From positions 1,751 through 65,750 of the forward strand of contig JBJTOU010000053.1 of assembly GCA_046074725.1 (NCBI GenBank): 64,000 nt of DNA. Reading direction: 5' to 3'. Position 1 is the first letter of the stretch, and each line of letters begins with the position of its first letter. Below the pieces are notes generated by a model. The model searched no databases. It worked only from the letters and a program-made list of their open reading frames with translations, and was not told the origin of the DNA. Made by a program: the position numbers and the translations under genes. Positions 8,649 to 53,096 of the stretch are shown here, piece by piece. Origin of the DNA: Planctomycetia bacterium. Lineage in GTDB: Bacteria; Planctomycetota; Planctomycetia; Pirellulales; UBA1268.

Positions 8649-9635
8649 ATGCATTCTTCCCAACGCATCGTGCTCTGCTATCCCGTCGAGCCCCGTCACC
8701 TGGCTGCGATCCGCGCCGCCGCCCCCGAGGCGACGGTCGTCGATGCCGGCCAGGAACGGATCGCCGACGAACTCCCCACGGCCGACATCTACTGCGGCCA
8801 TGCGAAGGTGCCGGTTCCGTGGAAGTCGATCGTCGCCGGTGGTCGTCTCCGCTGGATTCAATCGTCTGCCGCAGGCCTCGATCATTGTCTCGTGCCCGAG
8901 GTGGTCGCCTCCGACATCGTCGTCACGAGCGCCTCGGGCGTGCTCGCCGACCAAGTGGCAGAGCACGCGCTCGGGTTGGCGATCGCATGCACCCGCCGGC
9001 TCCCCCTGTTCTTCGACCAACAACGTCGCAGGGAGTTCGTGCGGCGACCCACGCGGGATCTCACCGGCGCCACGATCGGCATCGTGGGGATGGGTGGCGT
9101 CGGCCGGCGGCTCGTCGAAGTGCTCGCCCCGTTCCGGGTGCGGATCCTGGCCACCGACTGGTTTCCGAGGGACAAGCCGCGCGACGTCGAGTTTCTTGGG
9201 CCTCCGGAGAGCCTACCGTCACTGCTCGAGCAGGCCGACCTGCTCTTTCTTTGCGTTCCGCTCACGCTGAACACCCGTGGCATGATCGATGCCGCGGCGT
9301 TGGCACGGATGAAGCGTGGCAGCATCCTCGTGAACATGGCCCGCGGCCCCCTCATCGACGAGGACGCCCTCGTCGATGCGTTGGAACACGGGCACCTCGA
9401 CATGGCGGCGCTCGACGTGACCCCCGACGAACCGCCCAAGCCGACGAGCCGCCTCTGGACGGCGCCCCGGCTCATCATCACGCCGCACGTCGCGGGCCAG
9501 GCGGCGCGCCGGATTGATGCAATGACCGAATTCTTCTGCGACAATCTCCGAAGGTACCGTTCCGGACGGTCCCTGCGAAACCAGGTCGACAAGCGGCTCG
9601 GCTTTCCGGAGCCGACCACCGAAGCCACAACATGA
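8649..9635 (+). CDS. D-isomer-specific 2-hydroxyacid dehydrogenase family protein
   Basis: ATG 8649 (MHSSQRIVLCYP). NAD fold GATIGIVGMGGVGRRL. Also ARGPLIDEDALVDALEHGHLDMAALDVTPDEP and ITPHVAG. The part of the track ORF upstream of 8649 is antisense to the DoxX gene. Confidence 0.85.
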   Translation: MHSSQRIVLCYPVEPRHLAAIRAAAPEATVVDAGQERIADELPTADIYCGHAKVPVPWKSIVAGGRLRWIQSSAAGLDHCLVPEVVASDIVVTSASGVLADQVAEHALGLAIACTRRLPLFFDQQRRREFVRRPTRDLTGATIGIVGMGGVGRRLVEVLAPFRVRILATDWFPRDKPRDVEFLGPPESLPSLLEQADLLFLCVPLTLNTRGMIDAAALARMKRGSILVNMARGPLIDEDALVDALEHGHLDMAALDVTPDEPPKPTSRLWTAPRLIITPHVAGQAARRIDAMTEFFCDNLRRYRSGRSLRNQVDKRLGFPEPTTEATT

Positions 9636-10756
9636 CTCCCTCCGAAGACTCCTTCTCGACCGCGATTTTCCAGGACGACCGCCCCACGATCTCGTGCGGC
9701 AGCGAGGTCGTGATCCGGTGTCCCGACGAACTGCTCGCACGCTACGGCGAGATTCTCGAGGCTGGCCGTCTCAATTGGACGGAATACCACAACCTCATGC
9801 GGCGGCTGGGGTCGGGGGGGCAGGGCGTGGTCTATCTGACCACCCGCCGAGGCACCGACAACTTCAGCCTTCCGGTGGCACTCAAAATCTTCTCGCCCGA
9901 GCGGTACGAGTCGGAGGCGCACTACGACGAGGCGATGGGCCGGATCGCGGCGGTGGCCTCGAGGGTCGCCCAGATCCAGCAGGACAATCTGATCGATGTT
10001 CAGAACTTCGTCGAGCAGCGGCGGATCCGAATCATGGAGATGGAGTGGATCGACGGATACGACCTCTCGCGTCTGCTCGCCCCCGAACTGCTCGATCGCA
10101 CGCGGGCCAGCGTCAACGAAGACCGCTGGAAGTATCTCAACAACGTGATCGTCACCGCCGGCCCCCGGCAGTCACGGCTGAAGCCGGGCGTCGCGATCTC
10201 GATCGTCCGCGAGTGCCTGGCCGCCCTCGCCGCGCTCCACCGGGAGGGGATCGTGCATGGCGACGTCAAGAGCGCCAACATCATGGTGAAGCGGACGGGC
10301 AACGCGAAGATCATCGACATCGGCTCGGCGATCGCCCTGGACGACATGCCCCCCAACCGGACCTGCACCCCAGCCTACGCGGCCCCCGAGGTGCTCGAGG
10401 GCCGCGAGAACACCCCCCGATCCGATCTCGCGAGCCTCGGCTACGTGCTCATCGAAATGCTCTCGGGGCAGCCCCCCTTCGCCGGCCTGCAGTCGTACCG
10501 CGACCTGCTCGAGGCGAAGCGGTCGCTCGCCCACCGCCTCCCACAACTTCTCCCGGCGGAGGTCGCGGTGAACGAGCTCTTGATGAGTTTTGTGCGAGGC
10601 ATGATCGCGGCCGACCCAGCCAAGCGATTTCCGAGCGCCGAGGACGCCGACCTTCTCAAGGAGGGGGCCGCCAGCTTCCACCGCCAGTTGATCGTGGGAG
10701 GGCTGGCGAGCGAATACGAAAACGAAATCCGAGCCTGGCTGGAGGAGCTGGATTAG
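9632..10756 (+). CDS. Ser/Thr protein kinase, soluble, with variant catalytic motifs
   Basis: G-loop LGSGGQGVVYL, VALKIF, catalytic loop HREGIVHGDVKSANIM, IIDIGSA, TPAYAAPEVLEG. ATG 9632 overlaps the upstream TGA (ATGA). Confidence 0.85.
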   Translation: MTPSEDSFSTAIFQDDRPTISCGSEVVIRCPDELLARYGEILEAGRLNWTEYHNLMRRLGSGGQGVVYLTTRRGTDNFSLPVALKIFSPERYESEAHYDEAMGRIAAVASRVAQIQQDNLIDVQNFVEQRRIRIMEMEWIDGYDLSRLLAPELLDRTRASVNEDRWKYLNNVIVTAGPRQSRLKPGVAISIVRECLAALAALHREGIVHGDVKSANIMVKRTGNAKIIDIGSAIALDDMPPNRTCTPAYAAPEVLEGRENTPRSDLASLGYVLIEMLSGQPPFAGLQSYRDLLEAKRSLAHRLPQLLPAEVAVNELLMSFVRGMIAADPAKRFPSAEDADLLKEGAASFHRQLIVGGLASEYENEIRAWLEELD

Positions 10757-10923
10757 ATCGCACCCCAGATAGCTGTAGCGACGATCTGACAAGCTGAGAA
10801 AGGTAGGAGAGGGGGTCGGCGAATGCTCGAGGAGCGTTGGGCGTATCCTCGCCCCGCGACAATCCGCAGGACCGCCCCGCGGTGACTTTTGCCGCCCCCG
10901 AGCCGGCGATACACGTAGGCCGG
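10757..10923 (+). repeat. Copy 1 of a ~170-nt dispersed intergenic element (sense orientation relative to the kinase gene)
   Basis: Hand alignment to the reverse complement of 31087-31257 gives roughly 90% identity, with about a dozen substitutions and one 4-nt indel. It starts directly after the TAG stop. It contains the hairpin ACCGC-CCC-GCGGT followed by GACTTTTGCC (10871-10893). Confidence 0.85.
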
Positions 10924-10938
10924 CGACATGTCGACGCC

Positions 10939-11769
10939 TCAGCGTGACGTCGTGCGCCCCAGCCGCCTGTAGACCGCGGCGATCAATGCCGTGGTGCCGC
11001 GCGGGGCCAGCCGCTTGAGCCGCCAGAGGGATCGTGCGGTGCGACCGACGACCACGTAGCGTCGATCGCGATCGATGGCACGAACGACGCGGGCCGCGAC
11101 GGCGTCGCTCGTCCAACGAGCCGCGCCCATGCGCCGGCGAGCCTCGTGGGATTCGAGTTCGGCCGAAAAGTGCCACGTGTCGAGCAGCCCCGATCGGAAG
11201 AAGCCGGGGCAGACGACCGTCACGCCGGGCCGGCGTCGGACGCACTCGGCGGCGATCGCATCCGAGAGCGCGATCACGCCCGCCTTGCTCGCCGAATACG
11301 CGGCCATCGACGGGGGAGCGATGATGCCGGCGATCGAAGCGACATTGACCACGTGCGAACGGCTCGGGTGTTCCCTGAGCCACGGAAGGAACGTCTCGCA
11401 GCCGAGGGCGGTCCCGAGAAGATTGGTGTCGAGAACCCGGCGCCAGTGACTTTCCGGGAGCCTGCCGACCTCGCCCGTGGCGCCAACGCCGGCGCAGTTG
11501 ACGAGCAGTTCGAGCGTCGGCCAATCGTTTCGAAGCCGATCATGCACCACCCTCCAGTGGGATGGCTCACGGACATCGAGCGCGAAGGGGATGCCATCCC
11601 CTCCACGACGATCGACCTCCACCCGCACCGCCTCGAGACGGGCCTCGTCGAGATCGGTCAGGCAGATCCGCCATCCCGCGTCGGCCAGTTCCAGGGCGAT
11701 CGCCCGACCCAGGCCGCTCGCGGCACCGGTGACAATCGCCGCGCCCCTCTGCCAGTGCATACGGCCCAT
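10939..11769 (-). CDS. Short-chain dehydrogenase/reductase (SDR) family oxidoreductase
   Basis: AAIVTGAASGLGRAIALEL, NCAG, SMAAYSASKAG. ATG 11769 (MGRMHWQRG) was chosen because the longer track ORF would overlap the tRNA. Confidence 0.85.
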   Translation of the reverse strand: MGRMHWQRGAAIVTGAASGLGRAIALELADAGWRICLTDLDEARLEAVRVEVDRRGGDGIPFALDVREPSHWRVVHDRLRNDWPTLELLVNCAGVGATGEVGRLPESHWRRVLDTNLLGTALGCETFLPWLREHPSRSHVVNVASIAGIIAPPSMAAYSASKAGVIALSDAIAAECVRRRPGVTVVCPGFFRSGLLDTWHFSAELESHEARRRMGAARWTSDAVAARVVRAIDRDRRYVVVGRTARSLWRLKRLAPRGTTALIAAVYRRLGRTTSR

Positions 11770-11789
11770 GAAACGATCGGGGAGAAAAG

Positions 11790-11863
11790 CGAGGGTGACG
11801 GGACTCGAACCCGCGGCCTCCAACGTGACAGGCTGGCGCTCTAACCAACTGAGCTACACCCCC
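11790..11863 (-). tRNA. tRNA-Asp (anticodon GTC), CCA not encoded
   Basis: The minus strand reads GGGGGTGTAGCTCAGTTGGTTAGAGCGCCAGCCTGTCACGTTGGAGGCCGCGGGTTCGAGTCCCGTCACCCTCG. It folds as a cloverleaf: 7-bp acceptor with one GU pair, D arm GCTC/GAGC, anticodon loop CTGTCAC, and T arm GCGGG/CCCGT with TTCGAGT. Confidence 0.93.
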
Positions 11864-29180: not shown

Positions 29181-30206
29181 ATGCCATCCAGCCATTCCTA
29201 CCGTCCCTCACGAATCACCTCCCGTCGCTCCACTCGGTCCGCCACGACCGCTGCGACCAACGCCGCAACGCCCCGCGCTGGCCGCGGACGGTCCGAGGAG
29301 GATGGTCTCGAGCGGCTTCAAAAGGTGCTGGCGGCAGCCGGGCTCGGCAGCCGCCGCAGTTGTGAGGAATTGATCACGCAGGGCCGGGTCGAAGTCGATC
29401 GTCGGGTCGTGTCTGAACTGGGCGCCCGCGTCGATCCACGGAAACAGGAGATCCGGGTCGATGGTGAGCGGCTCCCCAATCCAAAGCGGGTCGTCTACAT
29501 GCTCAACAAGCCCGTCGGCACGGTCACGACGAACTACGACCCGTCGGGCCGACCACGCGTGGTCGATCTCGTGCCCGGCGACCAGCGGCTCTTTGCGATA
29601 GGCCGCCTCGACCGAATGAGCGAGGGCCTCATCCTCGTGACCAACGACGGCGAACTGGCCAATCTGCTGGCGCATCCCCGCTACGGGGTCGAAAAGAAAT
29701 ACCTCGTGCAGGTGGCCGGCGTACCGGGGCCCGACGTACTCGAGTCGCTTCGACGCGGCGTTCGGCTGGCCGAGGGCAGCGTGCATGCCAAGCGGGTCGA
29801 AGTGCGCTCCCAGCACAAGGACAGCACGGTGCTGGAGATGGTGCTCGACGAGGGCAAGAACCGGGAGATCCGTCGCATGCTCGCCCGGCTCGGGCACAAG
29901 GTGCATCAGCTCAAGCGAGTGGCCGTCGGTGCGCTCTCCCTCGGCAACGTGCTCCCCGGGCAGTGGCGGCAGCTGTCGTGGAGTGAGATCGAGTCGCTCC
30001 GGAAAGACGCCGAAGAGGCGGTTGGCCCACAGCGGCCGGGGCGGCGATCACCGCCCCGGGACCGCGCCGGGGTCGGCCCTGGCCGCCACGGCTCGAAACC
30101 GGGGCCCGGGGCACGATCCAGTCGGAGCGGAGCGAAACCGCCGCAGGCGGGTCAGCCCCGCCGGAGACGTCGGCCAGGAAAGGCATCGTCATGGCGGAAA
30201 CACTGA
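29181..30206 (+). CDS. rluB: Pseudouridine synthase, RsuA/RluB family, with an Arg/Gly/Pro-rich tail
   Basis: S4 domain LQKVLAAAGLGSRRSCEELITQGRVEVD. Catalytic region LFAIGRLDRMSEGLILVTNDGELAN. The track start at 29166 is GTG; the ATG is at 29181. Confidence 0.85.
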   Translation: MPSSHSYRPSRITSRRSTRSATTAATNAATPRAGRGRSEEDGLERLQKVLAAAGLGSRRSCEELITQGRVEVDRRVVSELGARVDPRKQEIRVDGERLPNPKRVVYMLNKPVGTVTTNYDPSGRPRVVDLVPGDQRLFAIGRLDRMSEGLILVTNDGELANLLAHPRYGVEKKYLVQVAGVPGPDVLESLRRGVRLAEGSVHAKRVEVRSQHKDSTVLEMVLDEGKNREIRRMLARLGHKVHQLKRVAVGALSLGNVLPGQWRQLSWSEIESLRKDAEEAVGPQRPGRRSPPRDRAGVGPGRHGSKPGPGARSSRSGAKPPQAGQPRRRRRPGKASSWRKH

Positions 30207-31063
30207 TTGACGCGGCATGTCCCGCCATCTGCTACGCCGACACGGCCTCGTATGCGACCGCCTCGATCGTGTCCCATGCCCGGGTCGCGGAGCGCACCTA
30301 TCGCCTCCGACTGAATTGCCCCGAGCTGGCAGGCCGCGCCCTGCCGGGCCAGTTCGCGATGATCCGCATCCCGCATCGCTTCGATCCGCTGCTGGCCCGC
30401 CCTCTGGCTGTCTACGATACCCATGCCGGCGGACAGCACGCCGACTTCCTCTACCTCGTCCACGGCAAGTTCACGACGGCTCTGAAGGATCTGCCTGTCG
30501 GTGAGGAACTTGTCGTCTGGGGACCGCTGGGCAACGGGTTCGACCCGCCCGCTGTCGATCATCTCGTGCTGGTTGCCGGCGGCATCGGCCAAACGGCGGT
30601 CCTGGCGCTCGGACGAGAACGGCTCGGCAACGCCTGCTACGGCAGCCCGGTCCGCAAGGCGCCGCACGCCAAGCGGGTCACCCTGTGCTGGGGGGCGAGG
30701 CACCAGGGCATGTTTGGAGATGTCGATGACTTCCGCCGTGCCGGCATCGACGTGCACCTTGCCACGCTCGATGGATCAGCCGGCCGAAAGGGAACCGTGG
30801 TCGATCTGCTCGGTGACGTCACCCGGGGCGATGAGTCGATGCGGATCGCCTGCTGCGGCCCGGAGCCGATGATGGAGGCCGTGACGAACTGGGCCCGTGG
30901 CCATGGTGTGCCGTGCGACGTGTCGCTCGAGGCGCCGATGGCCTGTGGCATCGGCATCTGCTTCACGTGCGTGGCAAAGGTTCGGGATGCCTCGGGCGGC
31001 TGGGACTACCGTCGCACCTGCATCGAAGGCCCCGTCTTCGACGGCACGATGATCGAGTGGTGA
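30191..31063 (+). CDS. pyrK: Dihydroorotate dehydrogenase electron-transfer subunit (PyrK-like)
   Basis: ALPGQFAMIRI, LVWGPLGNGF, LVAGGIGQTAV, and C-terminal 2Fe-2S cysteines MACGIGICFTCV. It overlaps the rluB end by 16 nt. Confidence 0.8.
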   Translation: MAETLIDAACPAICYADTASYATASIVSHARVAERTYRLRLNCPELAGRALPGQFAMIRIPHRFDPLLARPLAVYDTHAGGQHADFLYLVHGKFTTALKDLPVGEELVVWGPLGNGFDPPAVDHLVLVAGGIGQTAVLALGRERLGNACYGSPVRKAPHAKRVTLCWGARHQGMFGDVDDFRRAGIDVHLATLDGSAGRKGTVVDLLGDVTRGDESMRIACCGPEPMMEAVTNWARGHGVPCDVSLEAPMACGIGICFTCVAKVRDASGGWDYRRTCIEGPVFDGTMIEW

Positions 31064-31086
31064 CGATCTCGGCGGCTAGATCGCAT

Positions 31087-31257
31087 CCGGCCTACGTGTA
31101 TGGCCGGCTCGGGGGCGGCAAAAGTCGCCGATGGGCGGTCCTGCGGATTGTCGCGGGGCGAGGATACGCCCAACGCTCCTCGAGCGTTCGCCGACCCCCT
31201 CGCCTACCTTTCTCAGTCAGTTTGTCAGATTGTCGCTAGAGCGATCTGGAGTGCGTT
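31087..31257 (-). repeat. Copy 2 of the ~170-nt dispersed element (sense orientation relative to rpsT)
   Basis: Its reverse complement aligns to 10757-10923 at roughly 90% identity. It ends against the rpsT stop codon (TAG, 31258-31260). Internal hairpins are at 31087-31107 (CCGGCC N9 GGCCGG), 31126-31137 and 31172-31188 (AACGCTC CTC GAGCGTT). Confidence 0.85.
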
Positions 31258-31524
31258 CTACCCCTTGGCCGCCTTCAGGCGGGCGGAGAGGCGGGACTTG
31301 ATCCGGGCCGCTCGATTCTTGTGAATCCTGTTCTTGCTGGCGGCCTGGTCGGCTTTCTTGGCGACTGCCCGGAACTGCTCCGTCGCGGCGGAGACGTCAC
31401 CGGATGAAACTGACTGCAGCACTTTCCGTATCTGCTTCTTGATCTCAGACTTCGTGGAACGATTCCGCTCACGGTTCCGGAGGTTTTGGCGGTGACGTTT
31501 CTTTGCGCTGGCCGAGTGGGGCAT
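31258..31524 (-). CDS. rpsT: 30S ribosomal protein S20
   Basis: MPHSASAKKRHRQNLRNRERNRSTKSEIKKQIRKV... Confidence 0.92.
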   Translation of the reverse strand: MPHSASAKKRHRQNLRNRERNRSTKSEIKKQIRKVLQSVSSGDVSAATEQFRAVAKKADQAASKNRIHKNRAARIKSRLSARLKAAKG

Positions 31525-31611
31525 TCCAAATCTTTCTGCTGGCTGGGGTTGCAAGGGGCTGGTTCGACAGGAAGATCGCCTGCGGCCGCGAGGCCGGCGG
31601 ACTCCCGACGA

Positions 31612-33048
31612 TCACACCGCCCCTTTATCCTTTCCCGAGGCCAACTTGTCCAGCCGTTGGGCCACGTCCCGGTAGCCGAAGTCGAGCCCGCCGAGCTCCG
31701 AAAGGTATTTCTGGGCCAGGTCGACGTCGCCCGTTGCCATCGACAGGACCCCAGCCCGGTAGAGGGCCCGCTTGCGCAGGTCGATTTCACGGTCGGTCAG
31801 GGTGTCGATGGCGGCCTGGTAGTTCCGTAGCGCCAGCGGGTATTGCTTGATCTTCTGGAAGCACTCGCCCAGTTCCAGTGACACCTGTCCCTTGCGACGG
31901 CTATCCTGGAGCACGTCCTGAAAATGCTTGATGGCCTCAGGCACATTGCCGGCCGCCTTGAGCCGCACCGCCAGCTCGTACCGCCACGTCATATTCTCTG
32001 GATACCGCTGGCACCGGGCCGCGTAGACCTGAATCTCCTGTTGGATCTGCGCCACGCGAAGCTGCTCGAGCGTAGCCCGGTGCGCGGGAGTGTCTTCTGC
32101 CTCGAGATTCTTTTCCGCGACGTGCACCCGGTACCGCCCCCACCGGAGCTGCCGGTCCTCGAGATGCTCACGCACCTTGATGTCGTTGCCCGAAGCCGCC
32201 AACGCCGTGTGCAAAAGTTTTTCCGCTTCCTCGATCGTCGCCTCGGCCTCAAGGATATCGGCGAGCTCGAGATAAGGATCGATCTGGGCGGGGTCGGTGG
32301 CGATGGCTTCCCGCAACTCGGCCAATCGCAACTTCCCTGCGGGCTTCGCCTCTGCTTCCCCCTCATCGACAGCCGAGGTCTTGGAAGCGGGAGCCGCGGC
32401 GGGCCGACCCTCGGTGCCACGCATCCTGGTGGATGTCTTTTCGACCTGAAGTTTCGTGATCTTCCGATCCGCCTCCTCGGCATGCCCCTTGACGGTCTTG
32501 ATCCGCTCCCAGCAGGCAATGGCCTGATCGTATTCGCCACGGGCCTCGAGATACTCGGCACAGACGCGATTCACCTCCGCATCGCCGGGAGCGGCGTCGA
32601 GCGCCGCCCGCAGATACACCCGCTGCGTCTCCTGAAAGTTGAGCTGCTTGCACGCATGAGACATGGCGAGCAGCGTTCCATGATCTCCGGGCGACGATGT
32701 GAGGATTTCGATCCCCTTCTTGAGAACCTCGAGCCATTGCCCTGCGGCGGCCGACTTCTTCAAGCCACCCCTGGCGCCGGCGGAAAACAACACCCCGAGC
32801 CCGCCTGCCTTCTTTCCGGCAAACTTCCTCTTGAGAACGGTGAGCAGCCCCTGAAGGTAGATCGCGTTGGCCGGATCACCGAGAACGCACGCCGTGAACA
32901 TCTCGATCGCGTAGTCCACGTTGGTCGCCGCCTTCTGCTCGCCCGCCAGAAAGCATTTCTGCAGCCGCCTCCGCTCGGACTCCGGAAGAGCCGTCTGGTG
33001 CGACTGCACGACGATCTGACCAGAGGTGGAGGGTGTCGAGTCAGGCAT
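31612..33048 (-). CDS. TPR repeat protein
   Basis: ATG confirmed at 33046-33048 (MPDSTPSTSGQIV). Multiple TPR-like units, for example YLRAALDAAPGDAEVNRVCAEYLEARGEYDQAIACWERI. Confidence 0.75.
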   Translation of the reverse strand: MPDSTPSTSGQIVVQSHQTALPESERRRLQKCFLAGEQKAATNVDYAIEMFTACVLGDPANAIYLQGLLTVLKRKFAGKKAGGLGVLFSAGARGGLKKSAAAGQWLEVLKKGIEILTSSPGDHGTLLAMSHACKQLNFQETQRVYLRAALDAAPGDAEVNRVCAEYLEARGEYDQAIACWERIKTVKGHAEEADRKITKLQVEKTSTRMRGTEGRPAAAPASKTSAVDEGEAEAKPAGKLRLAELREAIATDPAQIDPYLELADILEAEATIEEAEKLLHTALAASGNDIKVREHLEDRQLRWGRYRVHVAEKNLEAEDTPAHRATLEQLRVAQIQQEIQVYAARCQRYPENMTWRYELAVRLKAAGNVPEAIKHFQDVLQDSRRKGQVSLELGECFQKIKQYPLALRNYQAAIDTLTDREIDLRKRALYRAGVLSMATGDVDLAQKYLSELGGLDFGYRDVAQRLDKLASGKDKGAV

Positions 33049-36507: not shown

Positions 36508-36740
36508 CACTACAGAATGCAGGTATCGCCGGTGAAGGGCCGCCCACGCACCGTCGCCGGACGTGGGCTACGGCCATCCTGGCCCTCGCTCTCTCGATGC
36601 TGACCGCGCTCCGGCATCCATGCCTGCGCTGGTCAGCAACGCCGGTTCCCGAGGCATGGGCAGCCCTTCACCTCCCGCTCTCAGAGCACCGAGGGCACTT
36701 CCATGAATGGTTTGGGAGGGGTTGCCCGAGCAGGCGTGAG

Positions 36741-51988: not shown

Positions 51989-52171
51989 ATCATCCGATCG
52001 CTCAGAACTCCGAAGGGGTTGCCCGTGCCCTCGAGCGGGCTTTGGAAGCAAGCGCAGCAAGGATTGCGACGCGCGGCTTCCACCGCAGTGAGCGAAGCCC
52101 AGGATGGGCAGAACGAACGTCCGGCGAGAGGGCGCGGGCGACCCCGACACGACCCACGGAATCCAGATCGT

Positions 52172-52648
52172 CTACTTCTTGACGGGCGTGAACTTGATCT
52201 TCTTGATCAGCTCGATCACCTGGCCATCCTTCCGGGTGCCCGATACCGCGGTGATCGCCCGGACGACGTTCTCGTAGTCGAGGCCGTAGTCGCAGTCGAG
52301 TTCGACTTCCGTATTCTCGGCCGGAGAGTCGGGCCCCCTCGCCGTCCCGACGACGTCCACGATCTTTACCTGCAGGTCGTCGAAATCGCGCACCGGCTGG
52401 CCGTTCATGATCAGGCCCGCGAGTTGCCCATTCGGGGCTGCGGACATCTTCAGACGAATCAACGTCACCATCTGGTCGTTCGGAGCAGCGGCGGCGGCCC
52501 CCAGTGGCATGCGGATGTCGAAGTCGCCCTCCGGTGTCACAACCTTCAGCGTGCACATGAAAAACGACATCAATTGAAACACGACGTCGATCATCGGCGT
52601 CATGTCGACGGCCACCTTGTCGCCGAGTTCCGACTTCCTACGGGCCAT
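52172..52648 (-). CDS. exbD: ExbD/TolR family biopolymer transport protein
   Basis: MARRKSELGDKVAVDMTPMIDVVFQLMSFFM. ATG confirmed at 52646-52648. Confidence 0.85.
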   Translation of the reverse strand: MARRKSELGDKVAVDMTPMIDVVFQLMSFFMCTLKVVTPEGDFDIRMPLGAAAAAPNDQMVTLIRLKMSAAPNGQLAGLIMNGQPVRDFDDLQVKIVDVVGTARGPDSPAENTEVELDCDYGLDYENVVRAITAVSGTRKDGQVIELIKKIKFTPVKK

Positions 52649-52652
52649 GCGA

Positions 52653-53096
52653 TCACTGCCTTTCGTCGTACTGGGCCCGGAGCGCAAACTTCTCGAAGCC
52701 CTTGTCCTGGCAGGCTTTGATCAGTTCCTGTACCTCGCCCGTCTTGGCCCGGCCATCGGCCCGCACGATCACGGTCGCCTCGGCGGGCTCCCGGCCGGCC
52801 TCGATCAGAACCTGCTTCTCCCGCTCGAGATAGCCACCGATATTCGGGACTCGAACCATTTCGCCAGCGTAGATCACGGCACCGCCCTCGGTGACCTGCA
52901 GCGTGATCGGCTTCTCGACGGGCCCCTCCACCGGCTTGGCAAGCTGGCTCAGGGGGAGTTGGATCCGGTCATCCTGCTCGGCCTCGGAGAAGTTCATCAC
53001 GAACATGAAGAACGTTATCAACTGGAAGGTCATGTCGATCATCGGCGTCATGTCGATGTCGGTGTTCGACAGAGCACCATCACGCTTTCTGCCCAT
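52653..53096 (-). CDS. exbD: ExbD/TolR family biopolymer transport protein
   Basis: MGRKRDGALSNTDIDMTPMIDMTFQLITFFMFV...VIVRADGRAKTGEVQELIKACQ. Confidence 0.88.
   Translation of the reverse strand: MGRKRDGALSNTDIDMTPMIDMTFQLITFFMFVMNFSEAEQDDRIQLPLSQLAKPVEGPVEKPITLQVTEGGAVIYAGEMVRVPNIGGYLEREKQVLIEAGREPAEATVIVRADGRAKTGEVQELIKACQDKGFEKFALRAQYDERQ

Follow-up and report, generated by a model that had tools for sequence, protein, structure and literature searches.

The window analysed here comprises 64,000 nucleotides of contig JBJTOU010000053.1, from a Planctomycetia bacterium, and has a G+C content of 66%. Two of its genes, pyrK and rpsT, are convergent. The former encodes a pyrK-like dihydroorotate dehydrogenase electron-transfer subunit, with nearest homologues in metagenome-assembled Planctomycetota, and the latter encodes ribosomal protein S20. 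Located between them, in a spacer of 194 nt, is one copy of a dispersed repeat (copy 2). Another (copy 1) is found between genes for a Ser/Thr kinase and a short-chain dehydrogenase. We consider it probable that copy 2 is a 184 bp non-autonomous transposable element, of the miniature inverted-repeat transposable element (MITE) type, from a family common in uncultured Planctomycetota.

A sequence-only reading of the window had described a dispersed element in two copies, with roughly twelve differences between them, and with copy 2 abutting the rpsT stop codon. These claims stand, and all of the strings quoted were found at the positions given. The copies are mutually inverted and match at 91% over 174 nt, with one 4 nt indel (blastn E=3e-66; nhmmer E=9e-40), while an ungapped 130 nt align at 95% identity. 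Besides the indel, there are 12 substitutions. The match is far beyond chance and the copies are true repeats. No third copy was detected in the window by nhmmer or by an unfiltered covariance-model search. Contact with rpsT is even closer than had been noticed; the stop codon contains the element's flanking TA. The bounds of copy 2, first given as 31087-31257, are corrected to 31077-31260. The left terminus, TAGATCGCATCC starting at 31077, had been missed. In copy 1, the far terminus has been lost after GTAGGCCGG.

A family of repeats in uncultured Planctomycetota

The pyrK-rpsT spacer of a relative (metagenome loci L009-L012; pyrK about 76% identical to that of the window, or 78% by BLASTP) holds a shorter version of the element. 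Common to this version and both window copies is an 18-mer, CTCGGGGGCGGCAAAAGT, within the 3' half of a conserved core. The 18-mer was used as a search word against metagenome contigs. At least 120 metagenome loci carry it and nearly all are full copies. Among the loci listed, nhmmer identified 138 cores in 0.92 Mb, 10 of which lack the exact 18-mer. Of 98 distinct cores, 78 have a short form. The other 20, including both window copies, carry an extra 21 nt module, which is therefore absent from ~80% of cores. Some copies are degenerate (L136, L066b, and L132b). The pyrK product of the window has no exact match on record; the closest relative (96%) is on a 1.2 kb contig that ends inside the element.

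Database comparisons were otherwise negative. With the whole window as query, Rfam 15 returned only tRNA at the gathering threshold. Copy 2, at E<=10, matched two microRNA models, far below threshold, and a short-form copy from L014 matched nothing. A 20-mer scan of the core against species-representative genomes gave 7 matches, in unrelated taxa and of only 20-21 nt, which we attribute to chance. The element had no match in a plasmid collection or in viral contigs, and four core strings had none in full-text literature. The repeats, abundant in uncultured Planctomycetota and apparently undescribed, are a new family, though of an element type already known.

Some copies occur close together. 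At L032 (11858-12078), the core plus a 51 nt spacer is tandemly duplicated, with a period of 136 nt. At L024 (~1815-1890) and L099 (2203-2273, beside 2295-2405), degenerate second cores lie head-to-head with intact ones, forming inverted dimers.

Presence and absence of the element between orthologous genes

Spacer lengths were compared between lineages. Between pyrK and rpsT, the window has 194 nt and L009 has 156 nt. In L133, L136, and L137, which are about equally distant from the window and have kept the convergent gene pair, this spacer measures 33, 4, and 5 nt, respectively. Since three related lineages have only 4-33 nt at this position, the window spacer carries an insertion. Removal of the element, and of one TA, from copy 2 leaves GGG-TAG-CCGCCGAGATCG-TCA. 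This is a spacer of 12 nt, like those of the empty relatives. We conclude that copy 2 is, on the strength of these comparisons, an insertion. Note that the two filled lineages, window and L009, do not group together to the exclusion of the empty ones. The rpsT stop codon is TAG in the window and L009, and TGA in the empty lineages, a pattern that fits repeated insertion into a TA-containing stop. Alternatively, the element may have been present ancestrally, at the pyrK-rpsT junction, and then lost.

Similar differences are apparent elsewhere. A degenerate copy downstream of a TP_methylase/HEM4 gene in L136 is absent from the close relative L137. At one other junction, L056 (~1860-2060) and L108 (~1330-1530) carry the element in opposite orientations. 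Hence, the same gene end has been hit independently. This junction is empty in L060 (~403-473), where the genes overlap by ATGA, and in L118 (~909-989).

The 33 nt pyrK-rpsT spacer of L133 (6616-6648), which has no element, contains a plain G+C hairpin, GCGTCGGCCGTGGCCGACGC, without a U-run.

Termini, the TA dinucleotide and stop codons

The 'sense' strand is defined here as that with G.U and G.A mismatches in the core, which is the rpsT strand. Read 5' to 3' in this sense, the family anatomy is TA, a terminus (GAGCGCATC), a variable arm of ~49 nt, a core of ~85 nt, an arm of ~26 nt ending in GATGCGCTC, and TA. The inverted termini of the family are TAGAGCGCATC / GATGCGCTCTA, with TAGAGCGCAT / ATGCGCTCTA lying a constant ~49 nt and ~26 nt from the core. 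In copy 2, the inverted repeat is TAGAACGCACTCC against TAGATCGCATCC (see Table 1). Among 101 cores with sufficient flank, 21 have both TAGAGCGCAT and ATGCGCTCTA and another 21 have a single terminus. Many other copies have arms that have diverged yet still end in TA. Likewise, cores seemingly without arms have diverged arms with the TA end kept. No conserved open reading frame (ORF) was found in the element. Coding potential was rejected given indels of 1, 2, 4, and 21 nt, and swaps of a hairpin named P3 below, among members.

Table 1. Features of the two repeat copies and flanking genes (positions are those of the window; features within copy 2 are read in the rpsT sense).
Feature	Position	Strand	Basis or remark
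Ser/Thr kinase gene	9632-10756	+	Pfam; one flank of copy 1
Copy 1, long form	10754-10925	+	begins on kinase stop TAG (10754-10756); covariance model 46.2 bits
Short-chain dehydrogenase gene	10939-11823	-	Pfam; other flank of copy 1
pyrK-like gene	30191..31063	+	convergent with rpsT; Pfam
Copy 2, whole element with TA at each end, 184 bp	31077..31260	-	alignment with copy 1; family anatomy; 4-33 nt spacer in relatives without element
3' arm with inverted terminus GGATGCGATCTA	31077..31105	-	terminus is TAGATCGCATCC on + strand, 31077-31088; flanking TA 31077-31078
Conserved core, predicted rod-shaped hairpin	31106..31204	-	pair counts in 77 short and 20 long cores; covariance model 51.9 bits, E=8e-8; compensatory P1 changes
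'T-run' CUUUUG (CAAAAG on + strand)	31119..31124	-	3' strand of P1 extension; pairs with GAA at 31187-31189
Second module mini-hairpin, CCG-CCCAU-CGG in family register	31128-31138	-	the small hairpin of the sequence-only reading
Optional 21 nt module AATCCGCAGGACCGCCCATCG, two mini-hairpins	31129..31149	-	presence/absence in L061 versus L093
First module mini-hairpin, UCC-GCA-GGA	31139-31147	-	
P3 cap hairpin, GGGCG-UAUCCU-CGCCC	31156..31171	-	swapped in other copies for GGGCCG..CGGCCC, AUGGCC..GGCCAU or GUGGCC..GGCCAC
Rest of 5' arm	31205..31247	-	variable in family; holds AGCGAC motif
Inverted terminus, 5' end, TAGAACGCACTCC	31248..31260	-	family consensus TAGAGCGCATC
rpsT (ribosomal protein S20, 88 aa counted from ATG)	31258..31524	-	Pfam PF01649, E=6e-23
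Flanking TA, 5' end	31259..31260	-	with the element's first base, G, forms rpsT stop TAG (CTA on + strand at 31258-31260)

Most copies in which termini can be recognised have TA at either end, often as part of a stop codon. At 18 of 27 5' ends, and 14 of 28 3' ends, an open frame of 60 codons or more is closed in frame by the terminal TAG, where ~23% is expected from composition. From gene end to core, the distances cluster at 46-49 nt (5' side) and 24 nt (3' side). Hence, copy 2 adjoins rpsT because the terminal TAG of the element often serves as the stop of the neighbouring gene. Because its first base, G, rebuilds TAG, an element that lands in the TA of such a stop leaves the protein unaltered.

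Composition just outside the TA is also biased, with C at 18 of 27 5' ends (67%) and, on the other side, the complement G at 20 of 27 3' ends (74%), where ~33% is expected. Junctions read C-TA...TA-G at ~70% of ends. At the left end of copy 2, C at 31076 and the flanking TA at 31077-31078 give CTAG. The insertion sequence IS630 duplicates TA within a CTAG target (PMC2577343, Table 1) and the junctions here have the pattern expected for such a duplication. We infer that the element has a TA target-site duplication.

Genomic context

Rough counts, made with a codon-log-odds gene caller, place 27 of 67 element copies in convergent spacers, 35 in tandem spacers (24 sense and 11 antisense), and 5 in divergent spacers. 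The corresponding background spacers number 52, 105 (both orientations together), and 45. In tandem spacers, the bias towards the sense orientation, 24 to 11, has P=0.04. At least one gene 3' end adjoins the copy in 62 of the 67 cases. The neighbours are unrelated housekeeping genes, with 134 Pfam families in 92 proteins and no recurrent function. We therefore rejected a specific gene association, of the riboswitch or leader type.

The core is predicted to fold as a rod

The fold of the full spacer is ordinary for its composition (z = -0.9 to -2.0). The structure came to light only from comparison of the family. A rod model was tested on two MAFFT alignments, A2 (77 short cores) and A3 (20 long cores). 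From its base, the rod comprises P0 (GGC/GCC), a tandem G.A mismatch, P1 (GGGGG(U)CGGCGAA / UUUGCCGCCCCC), P2 (UCGAGGAGC / GCGACGAGA, with two tandem G.A and the inner helix GGAGC/GCGAC), and P3, a variable cap hairpin. The module is an optional addition. Paired cells amount to 77.6% (A2) and 85.8% (A3), compared with 36-51% overall, and 37-46% for A2, if the 3' partners are slid by 1-3 columns. None of 500 shuffles reached the observed covariation score. Individual pairs illustrate this. At pair 31-62, 57 sequences have GC and 19 have CG, and in 12 of 77 G-C/C-G takes the place of the tandem G.A at 29-64/30-63. Pairs of P3 switch among UA, GC, and AU (38-55 is UA in 20, GC in 15, and AU in 6; 39-54 is GC in 35 and UA in 16). 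The T-run is paired too, with 21-71 being GU in 71 and AU in 6, and 22-70 and 23-69 being AU.

In the main set, the 3' strand of P1 is fixed by the 18-mer search word. Hence, P1 was judged from copies found without the word. Compensatory changes are CCCGGG/CCCGGG in L099b, GGGGGAG/CUCCCCC in L061b, and an A-U pair plus GGAAG/CUUCU in L101b. Compensation of UUCU by GGAAG is seen in both L099b and L101b. Other word-independent copies are simply decaying. We conclude that the predicted core fold, a rod-shaped hairpin, is supported by covariation.

A local hairpin, AACGCUC-GAG-GAGCGUU, is predicted by RNAfold in the window copies and was rejected as the conserved fold. The long-range covariations at 29-64, 30-63, and 31-62 exclude it in this role. 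The sequence-only reading had listed the same hairpin (AACGCTC-CTC-GAGCGTT at 31172-31188) as one of two facing the convergent gene. It is indeed present, but the middle and last bases of its loop covary with distant positions, in favour of a long-range helix. The other, CCGGCC-N9-GGCCGG at 31087-31107, is present and strong in the window copy, but most family members have a weak stem or none.

The two strands of the rod are not equivalent. Mismatches on the rpsT-sense strand are one G.U and three tandem G.A, while the opposite strand would have C.A and C.U/U.C. Across the alignments, mismatch cells number 105 for G.U versus 13 for A.C, and 395 for G.A versus 60 for C.U. The sense fold is the more stable in 89 of 98 cores, by a mean of 5.2 kcal/mol. 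Note that, since it arises mostly from a few fixed positions, this asymmetry is a property of the consensus, not of many independent events. In terms of the folding model, it shows that one particular strand would fold, either as RNA or as single-stranded DNA.

Conservation of the core and switching of the module

The core is much better kept than the arms. Outside the search word, 30 core nt are 95.6% identical to the consensus, while identity in the adjacent 3' arm is 59%. Core identity is 96.3% beside 3' arms that are less than 50% consensus-like and 95.4% beside those at least 70% consensus-like. Hence, the core, equally identical beside a well-kept or a decayed arm, is under a constraint not shared by the arms. 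The strength of this constraint is overstated, by an unquantified amount, because selection with the 18-mer hides fully decayed cores. The constraint could reflect selection, or gene conversion among copies.

One possibility is that the core is a functional structured RNA module, either a protein-binding or stabilising element of 3' untranslated regions (UTRs) or a small RNA. It would be kept by purifying selection in the host and spread by, or captured in, a mobile element. The sequence of P1 and P2 is conserved across lineages with pyrK proteins only ~75% identical, and two of the three tandem G.A motifs swap to Watson-Crick pairs. Furthermore, the one strand favoured as folded tends to match the upstream gene in direction. 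However, recognition of a folded DNA strand by a transposase would also fit these features, and gene conversion among copies could mimic selection. The core has no Rfam match, and there are the degenerate copies listed above. No promoter-like site was found in or beside copy 2. On balance, we think this explanation unlikely.

Orthologous copies in L061 (7302-7407) and L093 (6975-7059), with surroundings ~97% identical, differ by the exact presence (L061 or L093, one of the two) or absence of the 21 nt module, AATCTGAAAGACCGCGAAGCG. This suggests gain or loss of the module, or gene conversion between copies. The first mini-hairpin of the module covaries, with pair 69-73 being UA in 11 sequences and CG in 9. 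The second (CCGC-NNN-GCGG in the family) is 96% paired in the 20 long-form copies, and L099 changes both sides of two pairs.

The terminator question

The sequence-only reading had proposed that clustered substitutions, between the window copies, preserve a small hairpin followed by a T-run. The strings in question are ACCGC-CCC-GCGGT followed by GACTTTTGCC at 10871-10893, and CGCC-CATC-GGCG-ACTTTT, which is the complement of 31120-31137. The hairpin is that of the second mini-hairpin and, as described above, is kept in further copies that carry the module. Three substitutions do fall in its 13 nt, but the clustering is not significant (0.9 expected, binomial P(>=3) ~0.06). Nor do the differences compensate each other in the family register, in which copy 2 has lost the innermost pair (C-G to C.U); it folds only after a slip to a new register. 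The T-run has only four T, which are paired with GAA inside the main helix.

The broader proposal was that the element is kept as a two-way terminator of transcription for the flanking convergent genes. Like intrinsic (Rho-independent) terminators, the element has a G+C-rich hairpin near a short U-run, after stop codons. In the short form, a single base separates a stable hairpin (-19 kcal/mol) from UUUU, and the core is conserved where arms have decayed. Location is also suggestive, given the frequent contact with gene 3' ends, the scarcity of copies in divergent spacers, and the excess of sense copies in tandem spacers. However, this location bias is equally expected from insertion into stop codons combined with selection against promoter disruption. 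A consensus scan of 30500-32000 gave no site inside 31064-31257; the run is CUUUUG, where the U-tract of an intrinsic terminator has at least 5 U in 8. Unlike intrinsic terminators, in which a stem-loop is directly followed by a single-stranded U-tract, the four U are base-paired within P1, and it is pairing rather than U content that is compensated. The element is also sequence-conserved and mobile, unlike such terminators. In the family, the opposite strand has no U-run after the rod. The module hairpin is only 4 bp (about -5 to -6.6 kcal/mol) and most copies do without it. Finally, convergent pyrK and rpsT in relatives are 4-5 nt apart, with no hairpin. The terminator reading is supported only in part, and we consider maintenance of the element as a terminator very unlikely. 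An effect of the whole rod on termination, or on mRNA stability, is possible.

Kind of element and likely route of insertion

Correia elements have TA at both ends, as does the family here. More generally, copy 2 and its relatives have the features of bacterial MITEs (Correia/NEMIS of Neisseria, ERIC, RUP, and Nezha; PMC3733652), which are non-coding, 100-300 bp in length, and have terminal inverted repeats. The family members are shorter than 300 bp, without coding capacity, and their dispersed copies show presence/absence polymorphism. Bacterial MITEs likewise have many intergenic copies, with insertion polymorphism, and can fold into a long hairpin when transcribed. The family differs in having no sequence similarity to known MITEs and no known parent insertion sequence. 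In addition, its ends are systematically used as TAG stops and its best-conserved part is the internal 85 nt hairpin. As for IS630, of the IS630/Tc1/mariner superfamily, its 2 bp TA duplication and CTAG target motif (PMC2577343, Table 1) match the junctions at ~70% of ends here. This likeness is one of junctions, and no transposase gene was found here.

The route by which such an element would arrive can be outlined. A transposase acting in trans, by TA-duplicating cut-and-paste and with a preference for CTAG like that of IS630, would place the element into TA sites. In a genome of 66% G+C with short spacers, TA sites that tolerate insertion would largely be stop codons. With an element starting with G, insertion into the TA of TAG would leave the protein unaltered. 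The core would be kept by a constraint of its own, be it recognition of the folded single strand by the mobilising enzyme or a host protein, gene conversion, or a role as RNA. An rpsT transcript running into the element would end in a very stable hairpin. This could hinder 3' exonucleases or read-through, possibly as a by-product.

Several observations weigh against a MITE of this kind. Neither 0.92 Mb of sequence nor 92 neighbouring proteins yielded an autonomous element or a transposase with matching ends. Similarly, no terminus pair encloses an ORF in the 0.92 Mb, and orphan terminus motifs are nearly all chance matches lacking TA. Pfam identified no transposase family in the 92 proteins, which come from fragments of many genomes. 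The best-kept part is the internal core, where in ordinary MITEs it is the termini, and this is unexplained by cut-and-paste. The strand-specific fold better fits a single-strand mechanism of the HUH/RAYT type. The TA duplication has been read from the ends, not from an empty site in the same lineage. The empty relatives have TGA as the rpsT stop, and among the filled and empty pairs none was close enough to show the site before insertion. Since metagenome copies were selected by an exact 18-mer, apparent conservation is inflated in the 3' half of the core and decayed copies are hidden. Finally, the gene caller used for context counts failed to call rpsT in the window and gave some wrong calls in L009.

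Some of these points would suit an element resembling repetitive extragenic palindromes (REPs) or their paired form, the REPIN. In this case, a REP-associated tyrosine (HUH/Y1) transposase (RAYT) would recognise the rod as folded single-stranded DNA and copy it, with the TA/TAG ends being part of the element. REP families have been reported in Planctomycetes, are mostly downstream of genes, and include GTAG termini able to supply a TAG stop (PMC3733652). As with the family here, REPs have a hairpin with compensatory changes and persist for long periods. The hairpin strand-specificity, with G.U and tandem G.A on one strand, and conservation of the core instead of the termini, are consistent with such a mechanism. 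Many cores begin GGTAGG, resembling the GTAG tag, and the module switch between orthologous copies suggests copying from other copies. However, a REP is defined as an imperfect palindrome of 20-40 nt with an unpaired GTAG or CGTC tag. The core here, of ~85 nt, is far longer and a single rod rather than two inverted REPs. A fixed GTAG tag is lacking; G(T/G)AG stands at the equivalent position, partly paired, with its last G pairing in P0. The termini are NTAG, where N is C at ~70% of ends and G at only ~15%. The base is thus mostly that of a flanking target (CTAG), not of a fixed GTAG. The family also has extra, TA-bounded arms, and neither a RAYT nor any other Y1 transposase was present among the neighbouring proteins scanned. 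We regard a REP-like origin as doubtful.

A MITE inserting silently into stop codons remains our preferred explanation and provides a simple rule, of TA+G ends that are silent in TAG, for an odd repeat fused to the stop of a ribosomal protein gene. We also entertain, with low expectation, a combination with the RNA module. Here, the core, with its three tandem G.A, its G.U, and its free cap, would be a module under purifying selection in the host, read on the upstream gene's strand at the mRNA 3' end, where it would bind protein, stabilise the mRNA or block read-through, and delivered to many genes by such a MITE; in effect a mobile 3'-UTR cassette. Two features are unusual for an element of this type, namely silent stop-codon insertion and an internal hairpin core far better conserved than the transposon ends. 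The core is near-invariant across roughly genus-level lineages while the arms decay. The family should be useful for annotation, since copies can be confused with terminators or small RNAs, and for studying persistence of elements in a poorly studied phylum.

Other features of the window

A tRNA (70 bits) at 11790-11863, on the minus strand, overlaps the 5' end of the longest ORF for the short-chain dehydrogenase beside copy 1. Hence, the true start of this gene is probably further downstream.

A second, unrelated family of dispersed repeats is found at 36537-36640 (plus strand) and, inverted, at 52087-52190. Further copies are at L009 (2643 and 2847), L049 (7740), L074 (3994), and L094 (667-707). 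It has no Rfam match at the gathering threshold. The repeat combines two direct GCCATCCTGGC boxes with a GGAAACC/GGTTTCC hairpin, in the pattern ...CGCCGGACG..GGCCATCCTGGCC.CGCTC.CTCGGAGGAAACC.CGCTTCGCCATCCTGGCTGCGCT.GGTTTCCTACGCCGGCTCC. Also in the window is a direct repeat of 64 nt (52545-52608 and 52993-53056; 78% identity), the two units of which are 448 nt apart and may be paralogous coding sequence.

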